Numbered from the stretch's first letter, positions 23,365 through 58,375 are shown. The stretch is DNA of 64,000 nt from an uncultured Chitinophagaceae bacterium (GCA_964409765.1 CAYPEM010000019.1:1429-65428); one strand, 5' to 3'. The notes: a model not told the origin generated them from the letters alone. Numbers and translations: made by a program.

Positions 23365-24090
23365 ATGGACAAATCCCGCAGAAGTTTTTTACGCAAAGGA
23401 TCGCTGCTGACCCTCGCCGGCATTGGCGCACAAGTGTTTTCAAATCAGATTATTAACGCAATGTCGCTCCCCGATGGACTTTCCGGCGATCAGCCTTTTA
23501 CGCTACCTGATTTGCCCTATGAAACTGATGCATTGGAGCCCTTCATCGACAAGATGACCATGGAAATCCACCACGCAAAACATCACCAGGCATATGTTGA
23601 TAACTTGAACAAGGCCATGGCTGCGGGGAACATCAAGGCTACCCTGGATGAGCTAATATCAAAGGCCGGTACTTTTCCGCCAACGGTAAGGAATAACGCC
23701 GGCGGCCACTGGAATCATTCCTTTTTCTGGAAGCTTATGAAACCCGGAGGCGGAGGCCCGCCTGACGGCCCCATAGTAGAAATGATTGAGGAGACGTTTG
23801 GAACATTCGATGTGATGAAGACTCAGCTGGAGGATGCTGCACTAAAGCGTTTCGGATCGGGCTGGGCATGGCTCGTCGTGAGTCCCGATAACAAGCTCGC
23901 CATTGGCTCAACGCCAAACCAGGATAATCCGCTGATGGATGTGTCCGATTTTAAAGGCAAACCGGTTCTCGGAATCGATGTATGGGAACATGCATATTAT
24001 CTGAAGTACCAGAATCGCCGCGGCGAATATTTAAAGTCGTGGTGGAATGTGATTAACTGGATCGAGGTGAATAAAAACCTTGAAATGTAA
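23365..24090 (+). CDS. sodA: Fe/Mn superoxide dismutase with twin-arginine (Tat) signal peptide
   Basis: RRSFLRKGSLLTLAGIGA Tat signal. HHAKHHQAYV and DVWEHAYYL metal-ligand motifs. Confidence 0.85.
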   Translation: MDKSRRSFLRKGSLLTLAGIGAQVFSNQIINAMSLPDGLSGDQPFTLPDLPYETDALEPFIDKMTMEIHHAKHHQAYVDNLNKAMAAGNIKATLDELISKAGTFPPTVRNNAGGHWNHSFFWKLMKPGGGGPPDGPIVEMIEETFGTFDVMKTQLEDAALKRFGSGWAWLVVSPDNKLAIGSTPNQDNPLMDVSDFKGKPVLGIDVWEHAYYLKYQNRRGEYLKSWWNVINWIEVNKNLEM

Positions 24091-24163
24091 TTTGAGAATT
24101 TGAAAATGACTTCTCCGCACGGGGGATCTCATTTTCAAATTAGCACATTTTCAAATTCTCAAA

Positions 24164-25087
24164 TTAAACTAATTCAATATCAAACTGAACAAGGTTAATA
24201 AACTGGTGTACGCGTTCATCGATTTCCGCTTGTGTCAGGCTTGCCAGTCTTTCTATGCCGAATTTTTCCACGCAGAAGGAGGCCATGGCCGAGCCATAGA
24301 TAATTCCCCTTTTCATGTTGTCGAATGATATATCGCGGGTTTGTGCCAGGTAGCCGATAAATCCTCCTGCAAACGTATCGCCGGCGCCAGTAGGATCGAA
24401 GACATCCTCGAGAGGAAGTGCGGGAGCAAAAAAGACCTGCTCTTTGTTAAAGAGCAGAGCGCCGTGTTCCCCTTTCTTTATGATTAAGTATTTGGGTCCC
24501 ATATTGAGAATTTTCTGGGCTGCGCGGACTAAAGAATATTCCTTTGTGAGTTGCCTGGCTTCGGAATCATTGATGGTGAGTACATCGACGAGTTTGATAG
24601 TCTCTATGAGCGAGTCCCATTGTGTTTCCATCCAGAAATTCATTGTATCCATGACGACCAGGCGGGGTCTTTTGTTGAGTCGCTCGATGACTTTTTTCTG
24701 AAGCTGGGGCATGAGATTGCTGAGCATGAGAAATTCGCAGTCCTGGTAGGAATTTGGAATTTCCGGGTCAAAGTCGAGCAGAACATTCAATTGAGTATCG
24801 AGTGTATCCCGGGTATTCATGTCAACATGATATCGCCCTGACCAGAAAAAGGTTTTTTGACCTTTTTTAACCTGGAGGCCTTCGGTTCCGATGCCCATTT
24901 CGGTGAATTTGCTGATCATTTCGCGAGGGAAATCGTCGCCAACAACAGAAACCAGTTTGATTCCTTTTGTAAAGAAGGAGGCGGAAATGCCTGAGTATGT
25001 GGCAGCGCCGCCGATAATTTTATCTGTTTTTCCGAATGGTGTTTCGATGGCATCGAAAGCAACTGTGCCGACAACGACGAGGCTCAT
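24164..25087 (-). CDS. PfkB-family carbohydrate kinase (ribokinase-like)
   Basis: C-terminal DPTGAGDTFAGGFIGYL anion-hole/ATP motif. Confidence 0.8.
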   Translation of the reverse strand: MSLVVVGTVAFDAIETPFGKTDKIIGGAATYSGISASFFTKGIKLVSVVGDDFPREMISKFTEMGIGTEGLQVKKGQKTFFWSGRYHVDMNTRDTLDTQLNVLLDFDPEIPNSYQDCEFLMLSNLMPQLQKKVIERLNKRPRLVVMDTMNFWMETQWDSLIETIKLVDVLTINDSEARQLTKEYSLVRAAQKILNMGPKYLIIKKGEHGALLFNKEQVFFAPALPLEDVFDPTGAGDTFAGGFIGYLAQTRDISFDNMKRGIIYGSAMASFCVEKFGIERLASLTQAEIDERVHQFINLVQFDIELV

Positions 25088-25251: not shown

Positions 25252-25328
25252 TCTTCCTTAGCTCAGCTGGTTAGAGCATCTGACTGTTAATCAGAGGGTC
25301 CCTGGTTCGAGCCCAGGAGGGAGAGCCA
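25252..25328 (+). tRNA. tRNA-Asn (anticodon GTT)
   Basis: Manually folded cloverleaf. Acceptor tcttcct/agggaga (one G-U pair). D-arm gctc...gagc. Anticodon stem tctga/tcaga with loop ctGTTaa. T-arm cctgg-ttcgagc-ccagg. Discriminator G plus encoded CCA. Confidence 0.85.
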
Positions 25329-26832
25329 ATTCAAGAAGGTCAGCAATTCGCTGGCCTTTCTTGTTTACTCCATTTTGTAATTGCTTGTGAACCTGAGTGA
25401 TGAGCTGAACTGCAGGGCTCAATTTTGCGGTTCGAACTTTTTCCTCCTCAAAAACCATATTTTGGACTAATATCGAACCAAGAAGTTTCTGTTTTACTTC
25501 TAATTTACTGTCAACATAAAACTCTCCAATATTATTACATAACCTGAAAAGGAAATTGAATGAGTGATTATAGCTCTTGTTACCAGTGACCTTTTCATTA
25601 AGATTGGATTGCATAGACAATAATTCTTCATGCAACTTTTTCTTCATTTCTGAATACGTTGATTTGTCGATTTCATCTGCAATGAATTTCCTATTCAGAG
25701 ATTCAATGAGCAATTGGTGGGATTCAATTTTTTGATTGAGAGAATTGATTTTTGAATGCTGATTTTTATCAGGACCATCTTTCATTTGTTTGACCAATTG
25801 TTTTGAAATCTGTTTTGATTGGTCCGTCAATTTTGATAACAACTCATCTAAAAACAAATGTGCTCGTGTTGCAGGAATCCGGAAATCACAATTGTATTTT
25901 GTTTGGCAATGGTAATAGTTGTAAAGCGATTTGTTTCTGCTCCTGGAAGAAGATGCCGTCAACTTCTGGCCGCATTTCGGACAATCTAAAAATCCCCTGA
26001 GCGGAAAAATAACACTGCGGGTAGTATTGACTTTGATTCTCCTTTTGCCGGAAAGATAATCCTGGACGGCATTAAATGTCTCCCATGAAATTATTGGCGG
26101 ATGTTTCCCTTCTACAATTTCTTCCACTTCATCACGCCAGGTTCTGATTAGAATCTTTCCTGTATAAATAGGATTGCGAAGTAAATTCAAGAATTGCTGC
26201 TTGCTGCAGATAAACCCCTTTTGTCTTATTTGCCTTCTTACTTCTTCTGCAGGATGCATTCCGGTTGCCATCATTTCAAACGCCTCCTTTATGTAAGGAG
26301 CGGTCTCATCATCAATGTCAATCGATTTATTAGCTGGAACATTTTTATAGCCAAATGGAGCACGCCACATCCAGCGTCCCTGTCTTAAGCCATGACGCAT
26401 TGCAACTTTTGTATTCAGACCTCTCCGGTCATTCTCGACCTGGGCCAGCGTACTATCAAGAACATAATAGAAATAATCTTCCGGAGTTCGAATTGTGTAA
26501 TCTTTCTCCACAGTTCGAAATTCGATTTTCATCTCCTGGAACCTTCGTAACATTTGCAGGCTCTCCATAAGATTCCTGCTGAATCTGTCTAAACGAACGC
26601 ATACAAAAGCATCCGGCTGGATTTTTTTAGTCTGTAAGTCATTAATAAATCGATTGAAAGAAGGCCGGTTGAATGATTTTGCCGAAACATCGTCCTGGTA
26701 ATGGGCAATTATTTCAAAATCATTCCGGATACAATATTTCCGTAACCGGTCTTCTTGTTCTTGAAGTGAAATTCCTGATACACGCTGGTCTTCAGTCGAT
26801 ACCCGGCTGTAAATTACTACCTTCTTTTTCAT
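25291..26832 (-). CDS. Large serine recombinase (resolvase domain, recombinase domain, zinc ribbon); the 3' end overlaps the 3' end of tRNA-Asn
   Basis: MKKKVVIYSRVSTEDQ...SLQEQ catalytic Ser region (internal Met of the ORF 25291..26925). CPKCGQKL...YYHC zinc-ribbon region. The C-terminal residues are read through the tRNA sequence. Confidence 0.8.
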   Translation of the reverse strand: MKKKVVIYSRVSTEDQRVSGISLQEQEDRLRKYCIRNDFEIIAHYQDDVSAKSFNRPSFNRFINDLQTKKIQPDAFVCVRLDRFSRNLMESLQMLRRFQEMKIEFRTVEKDYTIRTPEDYFYYVLDSTLAQVENDRRGLNTKVAMRHGLRQGRWMWRAPFGYKNVPANKSIDIDDETAPYIKEAFEMMATGMHPAEEVRRQIRQKGFICSKQQFLNLLRNPIYTGKILIRTWRDEVEEIVEGKHPPIISWETFNAVQDYLSGKRRIKVNTTRSVIFPLRGFLDCPKCGQKLTASSSRSRNKSLYNYYHCQTKYNCDFRIPATRAHLFLDELLSKLTDQSKQISKQLVKQMKDGPDKNQHSKINSLNQKIESHQLLIESLNRKFIADEIDKSTYSEMKKKLHEELLSMQSNLNEKVTGNKSYNHSFNFLFRLCNNIGEFYVDSKLEVKQKLLGSILVQNMVFEEEKVRTAKLSPAVQLITQVHKQLQNGVNKKGQRIADLLELALPPGLEPGTL

Positions 26833-28330
26833 TATCCTTTCCTTTAACTTCTTTTTGTAGAAGCTTAAAGTTAGGATTAAATTGTAAATTCCGAATCTTG
26901 TCCTTTTCAAAGGTAATTGAACCATCTATGATAGTATCAAGCAATTCGTACTGACAATCAATAACTGCGGTCCAAAAGAATGAATTAAAGTCCTTCAGGA
27001 GATGGTTGTGTGTTCGAGTATATATACTGTATGACGATTCTATTTTCGCCAATGAATCCAATTCTTCATCGTACATTTTCCTGTCGGTTTTTAATCTACT
27101 AAGAAGTAAATCATATTCCTCCTTTTCAATTTTTTTCCCGGCTAACAAATCGACCAGCTCGATGTGCTTTATTTTAATATTATTCGTGAGCTCTTCCAAT
27201 TGCTTAATGCGATTTGTGCGGGTCGAATCATCCATAGCAAAGACATTTTCAAGAACCATCAAGTATGCCTTTTGTATAGAGGTGCTAAATTGAATACCCT
27301 TAAGTACATTCTCAAATAAATTATGAGCTACATCAATTCCAAAATTGAATGAACACGTTTTGTTTTTTCTTTGGCAATTATAATAATGGAAGTATGTACC
27401 ATTACGACTTTTACTTCCTCCTGCTGTCAATTTTTCACCGCAGTCAGGACAAATCAAAAACCCTCGTAAAGGATACCTTGGGTTTCTTTTTTTCTGCGAT
27501 ATCCCTTTTCGACTGCGCTCAGCAAGCCTTTCCTGAACCAAATACCAGGTCGTTTCACTGACTAATGCAGGATGTTTACCTTTTACAAGTGTCACAATGC
27601 CTTGTTCATCTGTATATTTCAAATACCCCATATAAAAAGGGTTATGTAACACATTGTAGAATGTTTGCTTCTGAATTTTCAAGCCATATTTTTTGTTTAA
27701 ATATTTGCGAGCGCCTTCACCGGTAAAGGCTCCTGACGCTATTATTGAAAACGCTTCACGCCAAATATGGGCAGTCTTTTCGTTAAAAACGGTTTGTGAT
27801 TCTGTCCTTTTCAAAGGGTCCTTGTGTTTATTTCCTAAAATTTTCTTGTATCCAGGACCTACACGAAAAGGCGCATTTCCATTTCTGATTTGCTGCTTTA
27901 TCCCACTTTCAGCCTTTGCTGCCCGGCTCATATTGTCGTCTTGTGCACGATAAGCATCATGAACATATTCACGTCTGCCAGCTACTGAATGGAGGTTATA
28001 CTTCTTTTCAAGGGTGTATAACTCAATGCCTGCATTCATAAGAATTGGAATTAAATCTTGTGCTGTTGATACATCACGACTGAACCTGTCGAAAGAAATA
28101 CAAAGAATAGAATCAAATCGAGATGTTTTTGCTTTCATTTCTTTGATTATTTTAGAAATATATTTTCGTTTGAAATTCTTGGCCGGACAAATCTCATGTA
28201 TTATCTCGACTATAATCCATCCTCGGCTATTGCAATATTCTTTCAATCGATATTCTTGGTCTTCCAGGGACATACCGTAAATGGATTGTTTAAGGGAAGA
28301 CACTCTACAATAAAGAATTACTTTTTTCAT
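26792..28330 (-). CDS. Large serine recombinase, second of a tandem pair
   Basis: MKKVILYCRVSSLKQS...SLEDQ. CPDCGEKL...YYNC. 512 aa. Start overlaps the downstream recombinase gene. Confidence 0.8.
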   Translation of the reverse strand: MKKVILYCRVSSLKQSIYGMSLEDQEYRLKEYCNSRGWIIVEIIHEICPAKNFKRKYISKIIKEMKAKTSRFDSILCISFDRFSRDVSTAQDLIPILMNAGIELYTLEKKYNLHSVAGRREYVHDAYRAQDDNMSRAAKAESGIKQQIRNGNAPFRVGPGYKKILGNKHKDPLKRTESQTVFNEKTAHIWREAFSIIASGAFTGEGARKYLNKKYGLKIQKQTFYNVLHNPFYMGYLKYTDEQGIVTLVKGKHPALVSETTWYLVQERLAERSRKGISQKKRNPRYPLRGFLICPDCGEKLTAGGSKSRNGTYFHYYNCQRKNKTCSFNFGIDVAHNLFENVLKGIQFSTSIQKAYLMVLENVFAMDDSTRTNRIKQLEELTNNIKIKHIELVDLLAGKKIEKEEYDLLLSRLKTDRKMYDEELDSLAKIESSYSIYTRTHNHLLKDFNSFFWTAVIDCQYELLDTIIDGSITFEKDKIRNLQFNPNFKLLQKEVKGKDNEKEGSNLQPGID

Positions 28331-28467
28331 TTGATTATTTTTTATGATTTTTTGTATGATATGAATGCTCTATGTCGGCCAACCTTTTGAGCGTTTGGAT
28401 TACAAGCTTCAACTCTTCTTCGTTAATTTTAACGGGGCCGGAATTGATAATTTTCTTTAATTCTGCT

Positions 28468-28818
28468 TCAGTCACTATCGGAAAGTGTTGTATCAGTCTT
28501 CCGGTTTATGGGCGTGGCTGATGGATTTCCGGATGTGCTTTTTAAAGCAAGTGGAATAGAATGTTTGATTGATAATTCCTGAGCCACCTTTTTGCCAGCT
28601 CTCTTCTTTAAAGAGAAATCGACATCAGGCCTGGAACCGATTATATCGTGAAATGGAGTATCAACAGGAAATTTCCTGGTAACTGTGATTGGAATCAATC
28701 CGTTTTTTACCGGACCGATTAAAATTTCCTGGTCCGGATTCTTTAAATAATCTTCCAGGAATGAAAAGATTGGATGTTCTTTCATTGCTAATCGGGTTAA
28801 CTTAGAATTACAAGACAA
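28468..28818 (-). CDS. Hypothetical protein. The coding sequence appears to continue in another frame toward 28340, so a frameshift or a small overlapping gene is possible.
   Basis: ORF track. Manual reverse-complement reading of 28345-28470 gives a further peptide (..PIVTEAELKKIINSGPVKINEEELKLVIQTLKRLADI..) in a different frame. Confidence 0.3.
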   Translation of the reverse strand: MSCNSKLTRLAMKEHPIFSFLEDYLKNPDQEILIGPVKNGLIPITVTRKFPVDTPFHDIIGSRPDVDFSLKKRAGKKVAQELSIKHSIPLALKSTSGNPSATPINRKTDTTLSDSD

Positions 28819-30005: not shown

Positions 30006-31928
30006 TTAACCCGTCTTTTTCACTGTATCAAATTGAAATTGCCATTTGTCCGTGGAAGACTCACAGATAGATTGATTTCTGAATTCCTCTGAATGGAAAT
30101 CAATCATCTGTGAGCTTTCATTTTTATCCTGGCAGGTAGCACCATTATTCCTTCCGTTAGCTACCATAATTGTAAAGTTGTCCTTTTGAATACTCTCCTT
30201 TATTTGTCGTCTAACCTCAGCTAAATGCTTTTTAGCTGTATCAATATAAATCGAGAGGTTTTCAGCAATTAACCTTGCTGTCGGCTTTCTTTTTTGACTA
30301 ACAAGTCTATAATATTCATCCTTTACTTTATCAAAATAAGATAGAGGGGTAACCTGGGTAAACTCTCCAATAATAGAATAAGAGGATTCAATATTATCTT
30401 GTTCCTTTACCTGACCACCCCCCAATCCCATATGCTTTTTTCTACTGAGGTGATATTTAACCGTTTCGAAATTTATGTCAGCCAAATCGGAAACCAGCCG
30501 ACAGAAATGATTTTGACTTTTAATCTCTATTTTCCGTGATTGAATAAATAAGAGTGCTCTTTTCTTAATCTCTGTCCACCGATACAAAGCAGATGCATTT
30601 TTCAGTTCATTTAATAATCGCTTATATACAATGAGTGGAGCCTCATTTTCATTTATTCTTTCATCGATAAAATGCTTATTGCAGATGGATGACCTGGTTG
30701 AGAATTTTGGAGATAAAGTATTATTGGTGTAATGTTGATAAGCAAAGGAAGTAATGGATTTAAGTTCACTTTCGATTACGGGAAACTTGTTACCATGTTC
30801 ATCGAGACATTGTTCGTTTAAACAAAATGCAAGGCTATACAGTTTAGATTTTGAAACCGGTTTCTCATATACTTTCTGAATAAATAGGTATCCGCAAAGG
30901 ATTGCTATAAGCATATCAAATCGCTTACCTGAATAAATCATCAAATCTTTCTTAAATAAAATCTTGTATGCAATGGCCGGTTCCTGTAATAGAGCAATTG
31001 TATTTGATTTGTTATGCCATTCCTGATTGGAGATAAGTGTTTTCGGAAAGTATTTTGCCAGTGTATGTTTATTGTAATCAAATGTGAAATCTGATGTGCT
31101 TAGTTCCGGCAATCCGGAATGCTTGTCGATTACAACATGGTTTACACTATAGCCCTTTTCAATTTGTTTTGTAAAGTACAGGTAATGGCTCCGGTCCAGA
31201 TATATTTCAGGGTCAGCTAAAATTTTCTTTAGCTTACCTGATGACAGACCTTTTCCCGACCTTCCATTGTTCTTAGATTCCTTTTTTAAATGCTCCTGGT
31301 AGTAATCCTCAGATGATTTATCAAATACATATTTAAAGGTAGTTGCATGCTCATTAAACATGATTGCCGGGTCATAGGGCAAATAGGTACGTTGAGTGGT
31401 ATTACATGCACCATCACAAAGTTTGTAACCCAGTTGATTATAAATACGAGTTGACAATTGGTGATACATGTATTCATAATCTTCAAACGATTGGATTCCA
31501 TCTACTCTAATGATAGCATGTACACCGAAGGTTGTGGACCTATACACCATTATCACAAAAGGCAAAGCGGCAATTTCATTTTTTACGTCTTCGATTTCCT
31601 TTTCTTCGATATCATCGATATCAAGCAGGGCAAATCCTGTGAATGATTGCAAATTCTCTGCATCAATACAAGGATAGAATTTCGCATGCCATGTTACATT
31701 TGGATAATGCGTTTTGCGTAGCCTTATTTCCTTTTCAGAAAGTGCTCCAGAGCGTAATATCTCCTGGTCATCGTACCGCCAATCCTTTGTCCGGATTGTT
31801 TCAATAATTTGTAATGGGGATTTTACCTGACCGGCACTTGTAGTATATACATCCGGGAAATACTGAATTTCATCATTAGAAAAGTGTGAGTTTGTTTCAG
31901 TGTGTAAATAATTTGTCTCTTCATGCAT
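30006..31928 (-). CDS. Hypothetical 640-aa protein, possibly a primase/replication-related protein of Bacteroidetes mobile elements (VirE/BT4734-like N-terminal region)
   Basis: Size, position next to the recombinases and N-terminal segment resemblance. Low-confidence recognition without a search. Confidence 0.3.
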   Translation of the reverse strand: MHEETNYLHTETNSHFSNDEIQYFPDVYTTSAGQVKSPLQIIETIRTKDWRYDDQEILRSGALSEKEIRLRKTHYPNVTWHAKFYPCIDAENLQSFTGFALLDIDDIEEKEIEDVKNEIAALPFVIMVYRSTTFGVHAIIRVDGIQSFEDYEYMYHQLSTRIYNQLGYKLCDGACNTTQRTYLPYDPAIMFNEHATTFKYVFDKSSEDYYQEHLKKESKNNGRSGKGLSSGKLKKILADPEIYLDRSHYLYFTKQIEKGYSVNHVVIDKHSGLPELSTSDFTFDYNKHTLAKYFPKTLISNQEWHNKSNTIALLQEPAIAYKILFKKDLMIYSGKRFDMLIAILCGYLFIQKVYEKPVSKSKLYSLAFCLNEQCLDEHGNKFPVIESELKSITSFAYQHYTNNTLSPKFSTRSSICNKHFIDERINENEAPLIVYKRLLNELKNASALYRWTEIKKRALLFIQSRKIEIKSQNHFCRLVSDLADINFETVKYHLSRKKHMGLGGGQVKEQDNIESSYSIIGEFTQVTPLSYFDKVKDEYYRLVSQKRKPTARLIAENLSIYIDTAKKHLAEVRRQIKESIQKDNFTIMVANGRNNGATCQDKNESSQMIDFHSEEFRNQSICESSTDKWQFQFDTVKKTG

Positions 31929-34167: not shown

Positions 34168-36051
34168 TTAGTTGAATTTCATCAACCTCAAACTCACCAA
34201 AATCACAATCAACGTCACACCCACATCAGCAGCAATCGCCAGGACCAGGTTACTATATCCGAAAAGCGCCAAGGCAATAAATAATATCTTAATCAGTATC
34301 GCTCCGGCTGTATTAAATCTTATAGTCGTTAGTGTCCGCCTGCTTAGACGAATCAGAAATGGTATCAGCGAAAGCTTATCATTCATCAATGCAATGTTGG
34401 CCGTCTCGATGGCTGTATCACTTCCTGCTGCTCCCATCGCAATCCCGACTGACGATTGTGCAAGTGCCGGAGCATCGTTAATTCCGTCTCCTACCATCGC
34501 CACGGAGCCGTATTCTTGCAGAAGCTGATTTATCTTTTCCACTTTGTCTTCCGGAAGCAGTCCGCCATACGCTTTCGATATGCCGACCTGGTTGCTTAGA
34601 TATTGAGCTGCCTTACCGCTGTCCCCAGACAGCATTACAGGCTCTACGCCTAATTCTTTTATCGCCTGGATGGATTCCTTACTATCCGGCTTTACTTCGT
34701 CTGTAAGCCCGATAATGCCTGCTACGCCATCGCCAAAACTGACGACTACACTTGTTTTACCCTGGTTAGTCAAATCCTCAACTGTTTTCTCTGCCTTGTC
34801 ATCAATCGGCTGGTGCTCTTTGATAAAACTTAATTTGCCGATGAAGATTGTCTCATCTTCACATACCAGGCATTCAGCAATCGCACCTTTGCCGGGAATA
34901 CTCTTGAACTTATGGACCGCATGAGCTTTGTATCCGGCTTCGTTTGATGCATCCACAATCGCTTCTGCAAGTGGATGCTCAGAAAACAGCTCCGCTCCCG
35001 CTGCACAGGCTAAAAGTTCTTCCTTTGACGAGACGTTCATCGGTATCAAATCAGATACTTTAGGCTTACCAAACGTGATGGTCCTTGTTTTGTCTAATGC
35101 AATTGCTTTTATCCTTGCCATGATTTCCAAATACTTTCCGCCTTTTACCAAAATTCCTTTAGAAGAAGCATTGCCAATTGCAGCGTATATTGCCACCGGA
35201 GTTGATATCACTAACGCACACGGACAGGCAATCACAAGCAAAGTAACTGCCTGCTCCAACCACTTATTAAAATCCTGATGATAGATAAATACCGGTATTA
35301 CAAATATGCCAGTCGCAATCACAATTATTGTAGGTGTGTAAATCTTTGAGAATCGCTGAATGAATTGCTGAGATTTAGATTTTGTCGCCTGTGCCTGAAA
35401 GGTGAGTTTAACAATTTTGGAAAAAGTTGTATCAACTGAAAGGCTTGTTGTCTTAATCTCAATCAGACCGTTTCTGTTTAACGTCCCCGCAAAAACCTTA
35501 TCTCCTTCATGCTTGTCCTTTGGAATTGGCTCACCCGTTATAGCCGCCTCATCAATTGTTGTATTACCACTTGTAATTACACCATCAATAGGAATGAATT
35601 CTCCTGGCTTAATGAGTAAGATGGTACCGACTTCTATTGAATCGATTGGCATTTCCTTCAGTCCGTTCTTTATTATTGCAGTTTTAGGTGTCTTTGATAC
35701 TAATTCACTCAATGCTGATTGTGAACTTTCAATGCCAATATCTTCCAGTCGCTCTCCTAATACATATAAGGCAATAACTACTGCCGCTTCCGGATATTCC
35801 TTGAGATAAAAAGCTGCAACAACAGCAATAAGCATGAGCAAACTAATGCTGCTGAATTTTAATTTCAGCAACGCTCTTAACCCATTCCATAATACTTTAT
35901 ATCCTACTGATAAAATCAAAATCCCGAATACAACCGGTGCATATGGCATGGGTATATGCAAACCTGTTAAGGACAATACTTCAAGAGCGATTACTCCCGA
36001 TACAGTCGCTAACAGGAAAATGAATTTTTTGTCTTTAAGTGGAAGTATCAT
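34168..36051 (-). CDS. P1B-type heavy-metal translocating ATPase (CPC type, probably Zn/Cd/Pb or Cu+). It lacks a fused N-terminal HMA domain, and its phosphorylation motif reads DKTRT instead of DKTGT.
   Basis: ACPCALVISTP (CPC), SEHPLAEAIV (HP), MVGDGINDAPAL hinge. Codon 323 is AGG (Arg); this was checked on the DNA at 35083-35085. Confidence 0.8.
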   Translation of the reverse strand: MILPLKDKKFIFLLATVSGVIALEVLSLTGLHIPMPYAPVVFGILILSVGYKVLWNGLRALLKLKFSSISLLMLIAVVAAFYLKEYPEAAVVIALYVLGERLEDIGIESSQSALSELVSKTPKTAIIKNGLKEMPIDSIEVGTILLIKPGEFIPIDGVITSGNTTIDEAAITGEPIPKDKHEGDKVFAGTLNRNGLIEIKTTSLSVDTTFSKIVKLTFQAQATKSKSQQFIQRFSKIYTPTIIVIATGIFVIPVFIYHQDFNKWLEQAVTLLVIACPCALVISTPVAIYAAIGNASSKGILVKGGKYLEIMARIKAIALDKTRTITFGKPKVSDLIPMNVSSKEELLACAAGAELFSEHPLAEAIVDASNEAGYKAHAVHKFKSIPGKGAIAECLVCEDETIFIGKLSFIKEHQPIDDKAEKTVEDLTNQGKTSVVVSFGDGVAGIIGLTDEVKPDSKESIQAIKELGVEPVMLSGDSGKAAQYLSNQVGISKAYGGLLPEDKVEKINQLLQEYGSVAMVGDGINDAPALAQSSVGIAMGAAGSDTAIETANIALMNDKLSLIPFLIRLSRRTLTTIRFNTAGAILIKILFIALALFGYSNLVLAIAADVGVTLIVILVSLRLMKFN

Positions 36052-36407
36052 TTCTTTTTACAGCATTCATCAAGATTTGTATATGCTTCCGGGTCCGCCT
36101 TCACATCATCGGCATCATAACCATATTTTGAAATTTTCATTTTGATTTCTTCAGGCGTTGTTTTCTTCGGGTTATATGTTACAGTTATCGTCATGGCCTT
36201 ATCATCAAGCTTGACTAATTTAATTCCCCTTTCAAAGCCCAGGTCTTTCTCAATTTTACCTCCACAACTGCCGCATACTTGACAATGGTCACAGTAGATG
36301 TTGGTTTTAATTTTGATGGTCTCTGAATTATTCGCTTTTGCAGAATAAAAAAATGTTGCGAATGCAATAATGAATATTGCTTTTGATTTTTTTAGATAGC
36401 TATCCAT
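36048..36407 (-). CDS. Exported heavy-metal-associated (HMA-fold) metal-binding protein. Its stop overlaps the ATPase start by 4 bp.
   Basis: Signal peptide. Then ETIKIKTNIYCDHCQVCGSCGG...GI..V, which has the HMA ferredoxin-like layout with a CDHC metal motif in place of CxxC. Confidence 0.6.
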   Translation of the reverse strand: MDSYLKKSKAIFIIAFATFFYSAKANNSETIKIKTNIYCDHCQVCGSCGGKIEKDLGFERGIKLVKLDDKAMTITVTYNPKKTTPEEIKMKISKYGYDADDVKADPEAYTNLDECCKKK

Positions 36408-36435
36408 GATTTAAGTTTTAAGATTTAGAATTCGA

Positions 36436-37890
36436 TTAATGCATAATACCTATTCCATACGGGTCAACACTCACTTCAACTTTGAAATCGTTTATCACAC
36501 TTAAAGTTGCCAGATTAATTGCAGACACACTTCCATTTCGGCCACCACATACACTTGCATGATGTGGTGCCGGTCCGCCCTGAATGTTTCTATTTGTAAT
36601 GAAGGCAATGTCGGAGACGTTATCAATGGCAATACCATGTGGTTGCCAACCTGTATAAAACGAAGATATAACTTGCAAGGTATTCGTGTCGATAATTTTG
36701 ATTGAGCCTCGTTTATTGGGGTCGCTAAAAGTAGACACATCTTCCATACAACTGACAAGTAAGTAGGGATGAACACCTGATAAAGCCATTTCAACTGGTG
36801 ATTCTCCAACTGAAATAATTGCTAAAAGAGAATCATTCGAAGATTGAAAGACTCTTACTTCATTTGATTTTTGACATGTCACATAATACTTTGACTCATC
36901 CGTAGATAATAAAATTTCATGCGGGTCAAGAGAAGAGCTTGTAGAGGGCATTTGTCCAGGCTGTAAGACAACTTGATTTACATCTGGTAAAAAAATATTC
37001 GAAATGTCAATTTTGTAAATGAAATTACCATATTGTGCCGTAACATATAATACAGTCATATTTTGATTTAAATAACTACCATGTGGCCATGATAACGCTC
37101 CATAGGTTGTAATCAAAGTCATAGTTTCAAGATTAACAACTGCAATTCTTCCCGATGTGCTCCAATCAACTATAAATGCAAATTTCGAGTCTGCTGAAAT
37201 AGCAAATGTATTCCATGAACCACCTGTAATATTAACATCCCCGACAAAACCATTATCAGAGGTGCGATACTTTTGTATTACATTTCCAGCATAAAATATC
37301 GTATACCAATATTGATTATCATAGGAAACTTTGACCTGATGCGGCACTTCATGACCTGGACCGGTTCCTACATCGATATATCGAATGGGAATTTTTAATT
37401 CGCTATCGAAAACCGTCACAACATCACATCCTTGATTTGAAACATAAAACTTTTTACGGTTAGGATACTCAGAAAGAAATGCGGTTCCATCAATGCATGG
37501 CGCTCCATTCTGTATCCATGTTTTCAAAGTGTTATACTCAGAAGTTGAAAGAGGAGGTGCATTATACGGCATTCTGGGACTTAAAACTAAACCTTGAGTA
37601 GAATCCGTATTAGTGTAATACAATATTAAACTATAATCCGGTCTATAGGGTATTACACTTGCACCACCTCTTCCACCTTCAAATAACTTATCCCAGGTCG
37701 ATAAATCCAATCCTGCGGCACCACTTTTACTTGCTGTATTATGACAGCCAGCAGTTGAACATTTATTTAGTATAATGTCTTCAACTTCTTTTGGATAACC
37801 ACTTACAAAAGTCTCCTCATCATGTTTGTCCTTCTTACATCCAAACAAAATAAGTAACAGAAATAAGAATTTGAGAATTGAGGGCTTCAT
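36436..37890 (-). CDS. Lipoprotein with an N-terminal Cys-x4-Cys-His domain (homologous to the small lipoproteins at 4811-5579) followed by a YVTN-type beta-propeller
   Basis: Lipobox LILFGC. KCSTAGCHNT...LKTWIQNGAPC. The C-terminal two-thirds carries YVTN/LVIVD-like repeats. Confidence 0.55.
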   Translation of the reverse strand: MKPSILKFLFLLLILFGCKKDKHDEETFVSGYPKEVEDIILNKCSTAGCHNTASKSGAAGLDLSTWDKLFEGGRGGASVIPYRPDYSLILYYTNTDSTQGLVLSPRMPYNAPPLSTSEYNTLKTWIQNGAPCIDGTAFLSEYPNRKKFYVSNQGCDVVTVFDSELKIPIRYIDVGTGPGHEVPHQVKVSYDNQYWYTIFYAGNVIQKYRTSDNGFVGDVNITGGSWNTFAISADSKFAFIVDWSTSGRIAVVNLETMTLITTYGALSWPHGSYLNQNMTVLYVTAQYGNFIYKIDISNIFLPDVNQVVLQPGQMPSTSSSLDPHEILLSTDESKYYVTCQKSNEVRVFQSSNDSLLAIISVGESPVEMALSGVHPYLLVSCMEDVSTFSDPNKRGSIKIIDTNTLQVISSFYTGWQPHGIAIDNVSDIAFITNRNIQGGPAPHHASVCGGRNGSVSAINLATLSVINDFKVEVSVDPYGIGIMH

Positions 37891-37911
37891 TAGCTTAGTT
37901 TTTGTAAAGGA

Positions 37912-38379
37912 TTATTCAGTAACCGGAATATTTAGGTTAACTTCTCCTGATGTCTGAGTTAGAATATAAGGTATCCCACCGGTAACAGTATCTGAAATAG
38001 ATGTATCAAAGGCGACTTCATAGATGTAGTATTTACCCGGCTTTAAGTTTTCGATTTCAATATGATTCTCAGTTGTGTCTGCGTCAACGACAAGGTCATA
38101 AAGCCAAGGGTCCGTTCCAGGTGAATCTTGCGCATTAAATTTTACATAAACATGATATGGCCGAGTATCAGCCCCATGATGTTTCGGGTAGGCAACTATT
38201 GTTGTACTGCCTCCCGTTCCGGCATATAAGCAACTGCCATCGTTTTCCTCAGCTTCTGAATTGTAGCTAATGGAATTAGGGTCCGTGCATCCTTTAACCT
38301 TATCTTTTTTACACGAAGTAAAAATAACAGTGCCTGCAATTATTGCAAGCGTCAAAACCATTGAGGATTTGTTTTTCAT
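37912..38379 (-). CDS. Small lipoprotein, hypothetical
   Basis: Lipobox FTSC. No recognisable catalytic motif. Confidence 0.45.
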   Translation of the reverse strand: MKNKSSMVLTLAIIAGTVIFTSCKKDKVKGCTDPNSISYNSEAEENDGSCLYAGTGGSTTIVAYPKHHGADTRPYHVYVKFNAQDSPGTDPWLYDLVVDADTTENHIEIENLKPGKYYIYEVAFDTSISDTVTGGIPYILTQTSGEVNLNIPVTE

Positions 38380-38420
38380 CTTTTTTGATTTTAGGGAGTT
38401 AATTATTTTTGATTTTAATA

Positions 38421-39743
38421 TTAATGTTCGTGTTCTCCTTCATTCGTCAGCATAGCCATAAGATAGAAAGAGCCGTTAACTACAACTTTTGCATCATGTG
38501 GTAATTCTTCGAGAGGAACTATTTCCGTAAATCCGGAGTCAGATACTCCTTTCTTAATCTGTATTCTATTAAATGAAAATTTGTTTTCTGGATGTCCATT
38601 TGAATCATTATGTTGCTCAGATTCTGAATGGTTATGTTCCTTGTGTTCGTCAGGTTTTTCGCCTTCCTGATGTTGATGATTTTTCTCTTCATCAGAATGT
38701 TCATGATTTTCATTCTCAGATTGAATAAAAATGTAATCATTTCCACCAAAACTTGCAATAGCAGATGAAGAAACAGAAAGTACACTATTGTTGCCAACGT
38801 TGATATTTGCAATTACGCTCATGCCTTCAATCAATCCCGATTTTTCACTCGTTAGCGAAGCATGTACAGGAATTGACTTGCTTTCTCCTTGAAATGCAGA
38901 ACCAATCGAAAATATCTTCGCATCGTAATGCTTCCCTGGCAAATTAGTCAGAAGAACATCAACGGTTTGTCCAATTTTTACTTTTGGTAAATCCTGTTCA
39001 AATACAAATAAATCAAGATGGAGTTGAGAATTGTCCACAACATCCATTAAATCCTTTGACGGCTCAACAGTGCTTCCTATATTAATTTCAATATTTGCGA
39101 TGTTTCCGGAAATGGGCGATTTAATATTAATAAATGAAGAAATATTTTCAGCTGTGAGCGCTGCAGTATTAATATTCAACAAAGTCAATTGTTGTTTCAA
39201 TGCATTCAGGGTCGCTTTAAGCGTTTGATAATTTGATGTTACCTGCTGAAATGACTTTTGAGAAGCAACATTTTTTTCTGATAATTCCTTCTGACGATTA
39301 TAATCTGCTTCGGCAAAAATGATTTGACTTTGAGCCTCCAAATATTCACGCTGCATTCTTATAAATTCCTGATTTGCAATCGTAGCAACCGTTTGACCTT
39401 TCTGTACATGCTCGCCTTCCATTACTAAAATGCTATTAACCGTACCACCGATAATTGCAGTAATGTTTGCCTTGTTGGTAGGTGGCACTTTTAAAAAACC
39501 TGTCGCTTTAAGAGCAGTTGATAGATTTTTCATCTCAACATCTCCAAGTTGAATGTTCAGTTGTTTAAATTGGGCAGCATCAATTTCAACAGATGATGTT
39601 TCTTCGTGATGTTCATGTTCCTCTTCACCTTTAGGAATATCATTGTTTTTTTTGTCGCTGCACGAAACAGCAAAGACTGTGACAATAAAAAGGACAATAG
39701 TTTGTAATCGCCCTGACATATATTTTGAATTTCTCATTTCCAT
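38421..39743 (-). CDS. czcB: RND efflux membrane-fusion protein (CzcB/HlyD family) with His-rich metal-binding segments
   Basis: Lipobox AVSC. His/Glu-rich stretches EEHEHHEETS and NENHEHSDEEKNHQHQEGEKPDEHKEHNHSESEQHNDSNGHPE, plus C-terminal NEGEHEH. Biotinyl-lipoyl/beta-barrel MFP layout. Confidence 0.75.
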   Translation of the reverse strand: MEMRNSKYMSGRLQTIVLFIVTVFAVSCSDKKNNDIPKGEEEHEHHEETSSVEIDAAQFKQLNIQLGDVEMKNLSTALKATGFLKVPPTNKANITAIIGGTVNSILVMEGEHVQKGQTVATIANQEFIRMQREYLEAQSQIIFAEADYNRQKELSEKNVASQKSFQQVTSNYQTLKATLNALKQQLTLLNINTAALTAENISSFINIKSPISGNIANIEINIGSTVEPSKDLMDVVDNSQLHLDLFVFEQDLPKVKIGQTVDVLLTNLPGKHYDAKIFSIGSAFQGESKSIPVHASLTSEKSGLIEGMSVIANINVGNNSVLSVSSSAIASFGGNDYIFIQSENENHEHSDEEKNHQHQEGEKPDEHKEHNHSESEQHNDSNGHPENKFSFNRIQIKKGVSDSGFTEIVPLEELPHDAKVVVNGSFYLMAMLTNEGEHEH

Positions 39744-39751
39744 TTTTTTGT

Positions 39752-42700
39752 TTAATTATTGTAGTAAAAACTAATTTGAATAACAGACTGGTTAAAATTG
39801 TTGAGAGCATTCAAGTAATTATTCTTTATATCAATGCTCTGAGTAATAAGTGCAGTAAATTCAATATGACTGATTTCACCATTGCGATACGCAATCGTTG
39901 CTGCATTTAAAATTTCATCTGCCTGCTGCATTCCGATTGTTTCGTAATAGTTAACTAATGAACTGTTTTTTTGATATTCCTGATAGGCTCTTTTGTAACC
40001 CGTACTAAATTGCAATGAGTCGCTTATGTAATTCTTTTCAGAAATTTGCTGTTGTAGTTTTGCTGCCTGAATTTTTCCTTGCTGGCTCCAGAAGAACAAA
40101 GGTATTCCGATGCCTATTGAATAGCCATAATAGCCAGGTGTCTCATTATACCAATTTTGATTAAAATACCTTACCGAAATATCTGGCAACAATTTTCCTG
40201 ACTCTAATTTTTTTTGATAATGGGATAACGAAATTCTCTGCTGGCTTAATTGCAAAAATGGATGGTTAACATTGCCAGTTGGTTCAGGGTTTATTACTGC
40301 CGGAAGCTTTATCATTTTCTCAGCTATAGGCAAAATGGTATCTCCAGTATTTAGCAATTTCCTCATCTCCTGTTGAGCCATCACTACATTACTATTTGCG
40401 TTTTGCAAAGCAAGTTGTATTTCTTTATGCTTTGCTTGAGCTGAAATCTGTTCGAGTTTACCTGTTTCTCCTGAACTAAATCGTAACGTGGCTGCAGCCT
40501 CAAAATCGGTATAAATACTATCCTGCTGCTTTAACAAATTTTGTTGCTCGATTGCAAGCCACAGATAAAAATAGGCACTACGAACTTGTTGGACCAATTG
40601 TCGTTGTACAAGGGTAAGAGATGTTTCAGCAAAGCGGGTGTTCTGTTTGTTGAACTTCTTTTGAGTAATAAATCGTGTTGGAAACTCGATGGATTGAGAA
40701 AGACCAATTTTAAGAATTCCATCCTCAGCAGCGTTGTCCTTTATTAAATCCTCGTTCTCATAAAATATTTCTGTTCTGTTTAAATCTATAGCTGTTTTTT
40801 GGAGTTTCTTATTTCGTGTAACTTCTAATTGTGATGCCTGGAATGATGGATTATATTTTAATGCAGTGTCAACGCATGCCTCGATGCTTAAATGTTTTTC
40901 CTGAGCATGCATAATATTGCTTGGGAATAGAGCAACTGCGGCAACAATTGTAGCAGTAAGTTTACTATTAGATTTTCGCTTCTTGTTAGATGTAAATAAA
41001 AGATAAAGTGCAGGAAGTACAATTAGAGTTAAGGCAGTTGCTGAAACGAGTCCGCCAATAACAACTGTTGCTAACGGTTTCTGCACCTCAGCACCTGCTG
41101 AAGTTGATATCGCCATAGGCAGAAAACCAAAGGAAGCAACTGCAGCCGTCATTAGAACAGGACGAAGACGTATCCTGGTTCCTTTTCGTACACGTTCTAA
41201 AATATCAGTTACACCATCCTTTTCTAATTCATTGAAAGTAGAAATCAAAACTATTCCATTCAAAACTGCAACTCCAAATAAGGCAATAAATCCTACTCCT
41301 GCAGATATACTGAATGGCATATCTCGTAACCATAAAGCTAACACCCCTCCAATGGCACTCATCGGAATTGCAGTATATATCAGCAAGGCTTCACGAGTGG
41401 AACCAAATGTGAAAAACAACAAAACAAAAATGAGTAACAAAGCTACGGGAACAGCAATCATTAAACGAGCAGATGCTTCTTCAAGATTTTTAAAAGTTCC
41501 TCCATATGTAATATAATAGCCTGGAGGTAATTTTAAACTGCTAAGTTTATTTTGCAAATCGGAAACAACTGATTTAACATCACGACCACGCACATTAAAC
41601 CCGATAACTATTCTTCGCTTCGCCTCTTCACGACTTATTTGCGATGGACCAATAACATACTCAATCGTGGCAACCTGTTGCAACGGAATTTGACCTCCAT
41701 TAGGTAATGGAACATATAAATTTCTAACATCGTCAATCTCTGTTCTATTTTGATTTGCCAGCCGGACAACCATTTCAAATCTTCTCTCGTTCTCATACAC
41801 GGAACCTGTTGCTTCCCCGGCAAAAGCTGTCCGGACGATTCGATTGAGTTCACTAATCTGCAAACCATATTGAGCAACACGACTACGGTCATATTCAATT
41901 GTAATTTGAGGAAGTCCGGTTGTGCGTTCAGCTTGAGGTTCTGTTGCACCTTCCACTGACTGAATGATGTTAGAGACTTGCTGAGCGTAAAATGCAAGAG
42001 AGTCAATATTCTCTCCGAATATTTTTACTGCTACATCCTGCCTGACACCGGTCATCAATTCGTTAAAGCGCATTTGAATCGGCTGTGTTGCTTCGAAGAA
42101 AACTCCCGGTATTACAGAAAGAGCTTTCATCATTGTATCCTGTAAATCCTCTCGATTGTGTGCAGTGGTCCAATCATCTTTCTCTTTGAGAATTATCATC
42201 AGGTCAGTAGCATTGGGTGGCATCGGGTCAGTAGGGATTTCTGCGGCTCCGGATTTGCTGATAATCTCCTTTACTTCAGGGAAGCGTTTAATAATTTTCT
42301 CTACCTCATTGTTGTTGTCAATACTTTGGGAAAGTGATGCTCCTTCGGGTAATATGGAATGGAAAGCGAAATCGCCTTCCTCAAGAGTTGGAATAAATTC
42401 ACCACCCATACGTGTAAACATAAGTGCTGCACCTGCAAACAAACCTGTTGCAATTATTACAACTAAAATTCTTTTACGTATTGCATATTCTATAATAGGA
42501 GTATACATTCGTTGAAAGAAATTCATCATTCTATCACTGAAATTCTTTGTATGTGACGTTTTCCTGGGAAGAAATAAAGCGCTCATCATAGGAACATATG
42601 TTAATGATAATATTAATGCACCAACGATAGCGAATGAAACCACCTTGGCCATAGGTCCAAACATTTTTCCTTCAATACCAACTAACGTCAGTATTGGAAT

Positions 42701-46666: not shown

Positions 46667-47242
46667 ATGGCAAAAAAAAATCAACGCACCGTATGTACAG
46701 GCATGGAATGGTCGGACTTTTTATTTGTGGTCGAGACATTAAAAAGAAAGCAGGAGTATAAGTTTATGCTCCTTATTGCAGCCGGAGTTTTTCTTGGGCT
46801 TCGTGCAAGTGATATCCTTCAACTGCAATGGGATTCCCTTCTTAATGAGGAAACATTCTCATTGAAGGAAAAGAAAACTGGTAAGAGCCGTTTGGTTACT
46901 GTAAATCCGGCACTGAAAGAGGTGGCACAAATTGCTGCAGAGAATATACGTCTGCCGGGTATACCATTTATTGCCACCAACAGAAAAGGCAAACCTATCT
47001 CTATACAATACTTCAATCGAAAACTTCATTTCATTTTCAGTGAATGTAATGTTGCGGCAGGTAACGGCAGCACCCATACACTTCGCAAAACTTTCGGTAA
47101 GCGCATATTTTTATTAAATAACAAGTCTGAGAATAGCTTGATACTATTGAGCAAGGTCTTTAATCATAGCAGTACTGCTATGACACGTGAGTACCTCGGA
47201 TATACTCAATCGGACATTAATCAAATTTTCTTAAGTCTTTGA
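46667..47242 (+). CDS. Tyrosine recombinase/integrase, catalytic domain only (191 aa; no N-terminal core-binding domain)
   Basis: Catalytic residues in order: GLRASD (R), KTGK (K), HTLRKTF (HxxR), NHSS (H), REYLGYT (Y). Confidence 0.65.
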   Translation: MAKKNQRTVCTGMEWSDFLFVVETLKRKQEYKFMLLIAAGVFLGLRASDILQLQWDSLLNEETFSLKEKKTGKSRLVTVNPALKEVAQIAAENIRLPGIPFIATNRKGKPISIQYFNRKLHFIFSECNVAAGNGSTHTLRKTFGKRIFLLNNKSENSLILLSKVFNHSSTAMTREYLGYTQSDINQIFLSL

Positions 47243-47243
47243 G

Positions 47244-47690
47244 ATGAAAACAAAATTCAGTCTGATTTTAGTATTTACATCATTTTATTTTGCTCATGGA
47301 CAAAATGAAAAAGTCGATTTCTCTAATCCTGCGTTAATAAATGGAAGCTCGTGGGGAGCAGTCTTTCAACGATTCTATAAGAATGGAGACTTCGACTCGA
47401 TGATGAAATTAACGTCTGATGAGTCGCTCCGGAAATTCGGCAGAGATACTATTCGCAATTATTATGAGCGAATGGATTTTGGATACAAACTCAAATTGAA
47501 ATCCTGGACAAGAACTAAAAATCACTTCTCCCTCAATTACGAAGCAGATATACTTGCGACCAGAGTTATAATTAGAATGGAGCTTGAGTCTGTCAGCGGA
47601 AGTGCAAAAAGCGACAGTGCAAAAAGTGACAGTGTTAAAATTATTTTACCAGATAATTTCAAAACTAAAAAGTACTTTCTCTACCAATGA
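47244..47690 (+). CDS. Hypothetical secreted protein
   Basis: Signal peptide MKTKFSLILVFTSFYFAHGQ. Internal SAKSDSAKSDS repeat. Confidence 0.4.
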   Translation: MKTKFSLILVFTSFYFAHGQNEKVDFSNPALINGSSWGAVFQRFYKNGDFDSMMKLTSDESLRKFGRDTIRNYYERMDFGYKLKLKSWTRTKNHFSLNYEADILATRVIIRMELESVSGSAKSDSAKSDSVKIILPDNFKTKKYFLYQ

Positions 47691-48707: not shown

Positions 48708-48746
48708 TTTTGTTTCCTTTCGACTATTTATAGTTGGAATCGTTGG

Positions 48747-57739: not shown

Positions 57740-57786
57740 TTTAAAATTTTCTGTCTTCTGTTATTTAAAATTAAATAGAATTGTAT

Positions 57787-58200: not shown

Positions 58201-58375
58201 TGTTTCATACTTTCAGAACGATTCAAACTCATGTAAGCCAATTAATGGCGAAAACAATTGCTAAAGCTCCATAATAAATACTTGCAATGAAATGATATCT
58301 ATCATAGTTATAAGTACGAATTCATATCTAATAACAGAAAGATGAAAATTTATAGTTACTGAAAATCTCGTAGGT

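Follow-up and report, generated by a model that had tools for sequence, protein, structure and literature searches.

Two large serine recombinase genes lie in tandem at the 3' end of a tRNA-Asn gene in the DNA of an uncultured Chitinophagaceae bacterium, which raises the question of whether they form the working end of a mobile island, and why two such enzymes should stand at one tRNA. Together with the tRNA, the pair occupies positions 25,252 to 28,330 of a 64,000-nt stretch (GCA_964409765.1 CAYPEM010000019.1:1429-65428), here called the window, and was singled out in an earlier interpretation made without database searches (the sequence-only reading). We propose that an island integrated at tRNA-Asn has both its attL end and its recombination module in this segment, that the tRNA-proximal enzyme, LSR1, is a tRNA-specific integrase, and that the second enzyme, LSR2, cooperates with it, aided by a small open reading frame (sORF). 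We assign this combined reading a probability of about 0.6. Its first part is well supported, namely that the segment is the attL end of a tRNA-Asn island, with its recombination module, and that LSR1 belongs to a tRNA-targeting family with the attachment (att) site inside its own open reading frame (ORF). The cooperation of LSR1 with LSR2 and the present-day mobility of the island are what we infer beyond this.

Two complete recombinases at the 3' end of tRNA-Asn

The features of the tRNA and of the two genes are as follows.
25252-25328, + strand: tRNA-Asn(GTT), the attachment target and the sole tRNA called by ARAGORN in the window
25306-25312, + strand: T-loop of the tRNA (this and the following four parts read from the sequence)
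25313-25317, + strand: 3' strand of the T-stem
25318-25324, + strand: 3' strand of the acceptor stem
25325, + strand: discriminator
25326-25328, + strand: encoded CCA
25291-26832, - strand: LSR1, a 513-aa large serine recombinase and presumed tRNA-Asn-specific integrase (Pfam; PHROG 95, integrase; family alignment A1)
26792-28330, - strand: LSR2, a 512-aa paralogous large serine recombinase (Pfam; pairwise and clade alignments)

The open frame of LSR1 extends over 25291-26925 on the - strand, and its actual start at 26832 was taken from an exact match to a database protein of 513 aa (P0001). The 3' terminus of the gene is located in the anticodon arm of the tRNA, and the last 12 codons and the stop codon fall within the 3' 38 nt of the tRNA, as the sequence-only reading had described. 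The final 12 residues of the protein, LALPPGLEPGTL, fit the tail form APPxGLEPxTL of the family. LSR1 displays the catalytic motif YSRVS and four zinc-ribbon cysteines, and its last approximately 50 aa form a tail past the conserved fold. The alignment to the SPbeta integrase SprA covers residues 15-460 of LSR1 and goes no further, so that the C-terminus, in which the att site is encoded, is a tail appended to the rest.

The stop codon of LSR2 is placed 41 nt inside the 5' end of LSR1, which bears out the head-to-tail overlap noted earlier. The Resolvase, Recombinase and Zn_ribbon_recom domains were identified in both proteins with Pfam. The match to PF00239 was 4e-28 for LSR1 and 2e-17 for LSR2, and the R/S/D/R/R residues are invariant in alignments A1 and A2. 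Both proteins also match PF07508 and PF13408; the zinc-ribbon score of LSR1 is 24.6 bits against a cut-off of 25.3, yet all four cysteines are invariant. Each protein matches the phage serine-integrase family phrog_95 over its full length. The sequence-only reading had allowed that the two ORFs might be fragments of one frameshifted gene. For such a reading, with the ORFs as halves or duplicate pieces, their adjacency alone speaks. However, each ORF encodes 512-513 aa with three domains, the identity of 30% between them runs the full length, across about 500 residues, and the pair is kept in other genomes. Because both carry all three domains and are only 30% identical, we conclude that they are two complete paralogues and give the frameshift explanation practically no credence.

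The tRNA overlap is a trait of the LSR1 family

We collected the 120 best LSR1 homologues, of which 114 were full-length, and 80 loci from GTDB representative genomes, mostly from Bacteroidota with a few from other groups. The C-terminal peptide APPxGLEPxTL was present in 84 of the 114 full-length homologues and equals the reverse-complement translation of the tRNA acceptor strand and T-arm. Two variable residues of the tail covary in the manner of a T-stem (PPGLEPGT, PAGLEPAT, PSGLEPET, PLGLEPRT and PVGLEPTT). ARAGORN called a tRNA antisense to the 3' end of the recombinase gene at 56 of the 80 loci, and the targets were of nine kinds (Asn, Leu, Glu, Arg, Lys, Gln, Val, Met and Ala). The other loci were for the most part cut by the end of the contig or had tRNA-like tails. 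Since the overlap of ORF and tRNA recurs in 56 of 80 loci of other genomes, it is not due to chance. Outside the clade of LSR1, its nearest relatives (L007 and L008) are located at tRNA-Leu-CAA.

Nine loci (L012, L018, L057, L060, L067, L069, L071, L077 and L080) displayed T-arm-like tails, such as ESEGFEPSSK and DTGFEPVTPCL, with no ARAGORN tRNA paired with the end of the ORF. These may represent partial or unusual tRNAs, tRNA-like decoys or tRNAs outside the screening window.

The recombinase was single in 77 of the 80 loci; a second, distant family member was present in L033 and L038, and the gene was split in L074. Thus, the pairing at a tRNA to which the sequence-only reading drew attention is real here, while the link to the tRNA is a trait of the LSR1 family, whose members are normally solo, and the pairing is peculiar to a small clade. 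A solo element of 8.5 kb at tRNA-Asn (L025, 4415-8902) contains, besides its tRNA integrase, a ParB-like protein and two extra serine recombinases of 224 and 451 aa.

No relative above 26-29% identity was found in INPHARED, PLSDB or IMG/VR, and an origin from a phage or plasmid was rejected on this absence of close relatives. No earlier description of the family, of an ORF that crosses its att site or of the pair was found in the literature searched, the coverage of which was incomplete, so a prior description is possible. Apart from the two preprints cited below, the relevant literature consisted of general remarks on integrases and their tRNA targets.

Two junction states and the geometry of the att sites

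In place of the tRNA-derived tail, 13 homologues have a conserved alternative tail of approximately 40 aa (VLFSNQFKEDLxKIYELxxFIDV...). The long-tailed protein P0052 and the tRNA-tailed protein P0039 are 99.8% identical over residues 1-505 and split right after ...LAPPS; the same divergence of the tail was observed for P0057 as compared to P0045, with 98.6% identity before it. On contigs that encode the long tail, the recombinase is followed by mobile-element genes, and its downstream side lacks a tRNA. The long tail is also encoded at the far end of three integrated elements, on the recombinase-sense strand. These are L011 (at least 4.6 kb, cut by the contig end), L025 (approximately 8.5 kb, with the host gene UvrB directly outside its far end) and L055 (approximately 6.6 kb). 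Because the tail is encoded at the far end of integrated elements and has no tRNA beside it, the long-tail form is, to judge from these sequences, the free attP state, in which excision would join the recombinase ORF to the opposite end of the element. Recombination between attP and attB would be expected of large serine recombinases such as these, and the pair of junctions seen in relatives is indirect evidence for it.

The two junctions of L011 have in common a direct repeat of 46 nt with one mismatch, which comprises the terminator hairpin, the CCA, the discriminator and the acceptor 3' strand. The divergence starts at the T-stem, so the duplication runs downstream of the tRNA and not into the T-arm. 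The corresponding features in the window are as follows.
25318-25366, + strand: putative element-supplied attL arm (P' arm), made up of acceptor 3' strand, CCA and terminator mimic, antisense in the last approximately 25 codons of LSR1; drawn by reference to relatives
25335-25359, + strand: terminator-like hairpin with a T-rich tail, 7 nt past the CCA (terminator scan; -18.1 kcal/mol, z-score -5.6)

Read on the other strand, the hairpin encodes the LSR1 residues KKGQRIADL, and a mimic of a terminator hairpin is likewise present in the C-terminal codons of L011, L025, L092 and L094.

A comparison of attP with attB was possible on the T-arm side of the site alone. On the tRNA arm, the T-loop motif TCGAACC starts 8 nt past the acceptor strand, and on the element arm it starts at +13 (L011, L025 and L092) or +14 (L094). 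For the LI integrase and most other systems studied, the distance from the zinc-ribbon motif to the crossover is 5 bp shorter in attB than in attP (PMC3783163). The 5-nt offset of TCGAACC matches this rule, which supports the assignment of the tRNA as attB, of the long-tail junction as attP and of the T-loop as the zinc-ribbon motif. TCGAACC is thus the probable binding motif of the zinc-ribbon domain. The published spacing would put the crossover in the window at about 25320-25324, 4-5 nt inside the acceptor strand.

A third type of tail (APL[IV]D...) and the tail of L087-L089 diverge a few nucleotides earlier, which is consistent with the predicted crossover. The third tail, APL[IV]D...EYI.L..., is conserved in P0073, P0080, P0089 and P0111 and splits four codons before the attP-type tail; the lineages concerned also contain members with the tRNA tail and the attP tail. 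In L087 (12975-13034), LSR1 ends in ...ELAPLLAGSCK, encoded by a T-arm-like hairpin with a non-canonical loop (CTTGC-GGGAAGT-GCAAG), and the three independent assemblies L087, L088 and L089 stop within 3 nt of one another at that hairpin. In the last 120 nt of L101 (WBZT01035835.1), LSR1 (P0009) ends in a strong bidirectional terminator hairpin, with no acceptor-strand mimic and no nearby tRNA.

LSR2 and the sORF in the paired clade

One further gene belongs to the module.
28335-28475, - strand: sORF of 46 codons with a GTG start, VTEAELKKIINSGPVKINEEELKLVIQTLKRLADIEHSYHTKNHKK; ends 4 nt before the start of LSR2, conserved

Close relatives of LSR2 were few, with 11 in the protein collection at 37-55% identity, and the next matches were ordinary family members at about 30%. 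None was found in IMG/VR, and two loci were found in JGI metagenomes. The catalytic residues R9/S11/D81/R82/R85 and the four zinc-ribbon cysteines are invariant in the LSR2 clade, which also has a specific 10-residue insert, GNKHKDPLKR. The alignment of the clade displayed neither a tRNA tail nor a terminator-mimic tail. Judged by these residues, LSR2 looks like an active enzyme. The sORF had no match in Pfam or PHROG, and we regard it as a candidate accessory or directionality factor.

The order sORF-LSR2-LSR1 was observed in every context recovered, i.e. in the window and in L087-L089, L090, L091, L099, L100 and L101. The paired arrangement is present on nine sequenced contigs from at least six distinct lineages, with gene overlaps of 4, 8 or 41 nt, and tRNA-Asn follows LSR1 in the window, L090, L091 and L099. 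In these contexts, a gene of the LSR2 clade was never seen without LSR1, and a member of the LSR1 clade was never seen without LSR2. The cargo beside the pair varies and includes a type I restriction-modification system, an MmeI-like enzyme with an SNF2/PLD protein, and others. Solo recombinases have either a homologous sORF or a MerR_1-like protein of 265-320 aa directly upstream. For LSR1, the direct upstream neighbour is LSR2 and not one of these partners, and the sORF precedes LSR2. A derivation of LSR2 from the solo subfamily with the sORF was rejected, because LSR2 scored approximately 185-225 bits against the MerR-type group as compared to approximately 125-165 bits against the sORF-type group.

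These neighbourhoods bear on the idea that LSR2 is a non-catalytic regulator, e.g. a directionality factor that binds the coiled-coil of LSR1. Excision by large serine recombinases requires an accessory factor, LSR2 takes the upstream place that is held by the sORF or the MerR-like protein in solo relatives, and it diverges fast in all domains (in a per-domain comparison, which did not discriminate). However, the catalytic serine and arginine set and the zinc ribbon are invariant across the clade, which would be needless for pure regulation, and the sORF is still there as a separate candidate factor. We therefore find a purely regulatory role for LSR2 very unlikely.

Exchange of the sORF-LSR2 segment

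The two recombinases have not diverged together. L087 and L091 are 87.5% identical in LSR1 and 45% identical in LSR2, and across six pairs the LSR1 and LSR2 distances correlate weakly (r = 0.32). In a four-way alignment, the DNA identity rises from approximately 50% to 80-90% at the LSR1 start codon. The clearest case is L099, which occupies the same host locus in a related host. Its LSR1 protein is 82% identical to that in the window, as compared to 35% for LSR2, and the region of LSR1 and that of the adjoining 105-aa ORF both have approximately 79% DNA identity to the window, like the host gene PfkB (91% protein and 79% DNA identity). The segment affected can be delimited as follows.
26821-28437, approximate, - strand: exchangeable cassette with most of the sORF and LSR2; no DNA similarity to L099 between two flanks of approximately 79%, limits set where the BLAST hits end
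28468-28785, - strand: 105-aa ORF adjoining the module, 69% aa identity in L099, no family match and function not assigned by family search

From these comparisons, the sORF and LSR2 appear to be exchanged independently of LSR1.

One interpretation is that the sORF and LSR2 form a self-contained cassette with a specificity of its own, a nested, accreted or exchanged module that acts on another site, for instance at the 5' end of LSR1 or at the distal boundary of the island. The incongruent trees of LSR1 and LSR2, the jump in DNA identity exactly at the LSR1 start codon and the replacement, at the L099 locus, of the sORF and LSR2 alone by a 35%-identical version between flanks of approximately 79% DNA identity all point this way. 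In addition, many solo members have as their standard module an sORF with a recombinase directly after it, and the att site of the family is located at the 3' end of the recombinase ORF, which for LSR2 is the start of LSR1. Against this, the 5' region of LSR1 is not repeated in approximately 48 kb of island (window and extension contig L005), LSR2 has no att-like tail, and the two clades were never seen apart. The allotypes of CcrA and CcrB are also shuffled, and incongruent trees are thus compatible with a partnership. We consider a separate cassette possible, if on the unlikely side, and prefer the reading in which LSR2 is an exchangeable partner of LSR1.

The far end and the age of the island

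The G+C content falls from approximately 0.44 in the host flank to approximately 0.36 right of the tRNA. Beyond the window, the island was followed on the extension contigs L005 and L095-L097. These overlapping metagenome contigs reach window-equivalent position 77.2 kb, where the end of the island had not been reached. The island is thus at least 52 kb, in agreement with the large element (over 38 kb) that was one of the two earlier options, the other being a degenerate one.

A search for attR, the second copy of the junction, gave negative results. For the 25-mer proposed in the sequence-only reading, a 14-mer (acceptor strand and CCA) and a corrected 101-nt probe (T-arm, terminator and flank), neither the window nor the extension contigs contained a second match; the absence of attR from the window, reported earlier, is thereby confirmed. 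The 25-mer itself was poorly chosen, because it consists mostly of the T-arm, which is outside the L011 repeat and so probably outside the repeat here. A tblastn search with the alternative-tail peptides gave nothing significant in the window or L005, and the tail may differ in this clade. By analogy with L011, the attR of this island is expected to hold GGAGGGAGAGCCA, followed by the terminator, on the + strand. In the only related host found (L099), the tRNA-Asn site is occupied, and a look-up with the host gene PfkB, aimed at an empty site, gave no record.

Contig ends within the tRNA were observed as well. Among the Logan contigs, L001, L003 and L004 end in the D-arm of the tRNA (window 25268-25272) and L002 reads through, and a contig of 53,392 bp starts inside tRNA-Asn. 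An interpretation of such breaks as mixed occupied and empty sites was rejected, since shared tRNA k-mers most likely explain them.

The sequence-only reading had mentioned that the locus might be an ancient fixed remnant. In this case, the island would no longer excise, and the recombinase genes would have been kept by chance or domesticated. L099 gives this some substance: the same arrangement is present at the same locus with a divergence like that of the host, LSR1, the 105-aa ORF region and PfkB all being at approximately 79% DNA identity, albeit in one related host only. In addition, no far end was found within 52 kb, and the cargo is mosaic and partly pseudogenised. However, the three genes of the module are intact with their catalytic residues, the sORF and LSR2 were replaced after the hosts diverged, and the G+C content is still unlike that of the host flank. 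With site-specific integration by itself, related elements would also be expected at one and the same tRNA in the two hosts, and relatives display both integrated and free junctions. Taken together, we judge a fixed remnant improbable and prefer an island whose module may still be functional.

Proposed mechanism

In the model that we favour, enzymes of the LSR1 family would recombine inside the 3' strand of the acceptor stem of the tRNA gene, and the last approximately 25 codons of LSR1, read antisense, would supply a replacement acceptor strand, CCA and terminator hairpin to the tRNA. In the integrated state, the LSR1 ORF continues into the T-arm of the host and stops in the anticodon arm. 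After excision, as pictured from relatives, it would continue into the other end of the element and gain the conserved tail of approximately 40 aa. The distance of TCGAACC from the crossover is predicted to differ by 5 nt between attB (the tRNA) and attP (the element), with attB the shorter. A second, intact recombinase module, specific to the clade, is made up of the sORF and LSR2 and would share one overlapping transcription unit with LSR1. LSR2, aided by the sORF, may then work with LSR1 as a two-recombinase system for integration and excision, similar in function to CcrA/CcrB. This cooperation is favoured because the operon structure is invariant, neither gene is found without the other, and LSR2 has no att tail of its own.

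Several observations weigh against this model. LSR1 and LSR2 do not co-diverge, unlike what strict co-adaptation of a heteromer would give, and solo relatives integrate with one recombinase, so the targeting of a tRNA does not in itself require LSR2. In the sequence of the island as followed to window-equivalent 77.2 kb, neither attR nor a far-end tail was found, and no empty site came to light. The related host of L099 has the same left end at the same locus at approximately 79% DNA identity, which fits a long residence. Finally, the island is a mosaic that includes pieces of CusA and a tyrosine recombinase in truncated form, and it may be of composite origin or in decay.

A more speculative version goes further. 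The C-terminus of the integrase would report the state of integration, the swap of the tail would bias direction or expression, and the sORF and LSR2 would set the specificity for the arm of the element, with many competing islands sharing one tRNA. We put this forward tentatively and think it unlikely in this full form.

Cargo and flanks of the island

The remaining annotated features of the window are as follows.
23365-25087: host flank with a superoxide dismutase (+ strand) and a PfkB-family kinase (- strand), names taken provisionally from reading the translations
30006-31928, - strand: protein with a BT4734-like N-terminal domain (PF08800; Pfam)
34168-44125, - strand: metal-efflux cargo with a P-type ATPase, an HMA protein, a CusB-like protein and a CusA-like resistance-nodulation-division (RND) pump fused to an outer-membrane factor domain (Pfam)
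49366-52397, + strand: SPARTA-like defence pair of TIR-APAZ (506 aa) and short pAgo (504 aa) (Pfam; PADLOC 1e-111 and 5e-189)
52394-55339, - strand: type IIG restriction-modification enzyme (Pfam; PADLOC 2e-191)
57239-63807, - strand: HMBD protein, second P-type ATPase, and a CusA N-terminal fragment followed by an NmeDI-like restriction endonuclease (library matches, PADLOC)

The Pfam and PADLOC assignments agree with the earlier view that the pair opens an island with metal-resistance and defence cargo, which continues past the end of the window. The genes for TIR-APAZ and short pAgo overlap by 4 nt. The extension sequence adds a multicopper oxidase, more Cus genes and a CBASS operon (L096, 799-3885; window-equivalent approximately 73.3-76.4 kb) with a patatin phospholipase effector, a CD-NTase cyclase and an E2-like protein.

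Some details of the cargo were unusual. The fusion protein at 39752-44125 is 1457 aa long and combines a CusA/AcrB-type RND pump (residues 5-1044) with an OEP domain (residues 1287-1454) in an unusual single-chain architecture. At 61270-63807, a CusA gene is broken off after 422 aa and followed directly by a 411-aa NmeDI_C-like restriction endonuclease, a junction that looks like an insertion or rearrangement scar within a metal-efflux operon; a further CusA fragment of 632 aa is located downstream, in L005. Midway along the island (46667-49202) are a NUMOD4 homing-endonuclease-like gene and a tyrosine recombinase truncated to 191 aa, of which just the C-terminal catalytic portion is left; a second element, now decayed, may have its seam here.

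Implications

Large serine integrases are the main tools for the insertion of large DNA cargo, and their use is limited by which natural attB sites are available. The LSR1 family, a large and little-studied one of Bacteroidota, is found at no fewer than nine tRNA species, which are conserved sites, and thus offers a ready supply of integrases whose targets can be predicted, at least within Bacteroidota. The sequence itself discloses the att logic, namely the acceptor strand, the T-loop motif and the 5-nt offset. An att site in an ORF, an antisense tRNA terminator in coding sequence and a state-dependent C-terminus raise testable questions on directional control, and the tail swap, if true, would be a built-in switch for a serine integrase. 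A fast-changing and rapidly exchanged partner recombinase, such as LSR2, that is independent of CcrAB would offer a second natural system in which to ask why elements use two. The elements also move defence systems (SPARTA-like, CBASS, restriction-modification and AbiE) and metal resistance among environmental Bacteroidota.

Comparison with known systems

The sequence-only reading had compared the pair to ccrA/ccrB. For reference, we used the two genes of plasmid pRM27 that we take to be ccrA and ccrB from their sizes, their neighbours and what is known of this plasmid. The pRM27 CcrA and CcrB proteins are 27% identical to each other, and LSR1 and LSR2 are 23-27% identical to either, as compared to 30% between LSR1 and LSR2. 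In a neighbour-joining tree, the LSR1 and LSR2 clades (bootstrap 99% and 64%, respectively) fall inside the Bacteroidota family with Ccr as the outgroup; the tree does not resolve the deeper order, including that of LSR2 and the sORF-type and MerR-type groups. Because of the low identity to Ccr and the position of both clades within the Bacteroidota family, the pairing is an invention independent of CcrAB, and the likeness holds as an analogy and not as homology. It consists of two co-oriented, adjacent and paralogous large serine recombinases that are kept as a unit, and, as for SCCmec, of insertion at the 3' end of a conserved housekeeping gene that is left intact, with resistance cargo. However, the target of SCCmec is rlmH (orfX) and that of the island is tRNA-Asn; the LSR pair is located at the edge of the element, with an LSR1 ORF that crosses the att site, a 41-nt overlap and an sORF ahead.

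The archaeal integrases of the SSV1 type are tyrosine recombinases with attP inside the int gene, which is split in two by integration. An att site within the integrase ORF is common to both systems, whereas the LSR1 family swaps the C-terminal tail alone and keeps the core intact.

Islands with tyrosine integrases at tRNA genes, such as P4-like islands and tycheposons, also integrate at the tRNA 3' end, bring a replacement 3' segment, carry the integrase beside the tRNA and have defence or adaptive cargo. Large serine recombinases are stated to occur in a minority of tycheposons (bioRxiv 10.1101/2020.12.28.424599). P4-like islands and tycheposons differ from the present system in the enzyme family and its chemistry, and L011 duplicates the acceptor strand and terminator and not the T-arm or anticodon arm. 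Within Bacteroidota, the type II integrative and conjugative elements (ICEs) of Elizabethkingia anophelis are located at tRNA-Leu-CAA, as are L007 and L008, and have one or two annotated serine recombinases (bioRxiv 10.1101/402107). Both the ICEs and the present island are thus Bacteroidota elements at a tRNA 3' end; the ICE report is at the level of annotation, without an analysis of att sites or of the pair.

The canonical phage integrases of A118 (LI Int), SPbeta (SprA), phiC31 and Bxb1 have the same order of catalytic domain, recombinase domain and zinc ribbon with coiled-coil, and share a recognition motif whose distance from the centre is smaller by 5 bp in attB as compared to attP (PMC3783163). 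However, their identity to the present enzymes is at most 26%, and the LSR1 family targets tRNA genes and was not found in the phage and plasmid collections. In the LSR1 family, moreover, the att site is located inside the integrase ORF, and the C-terminus of the enzyme depends on the state of integration.

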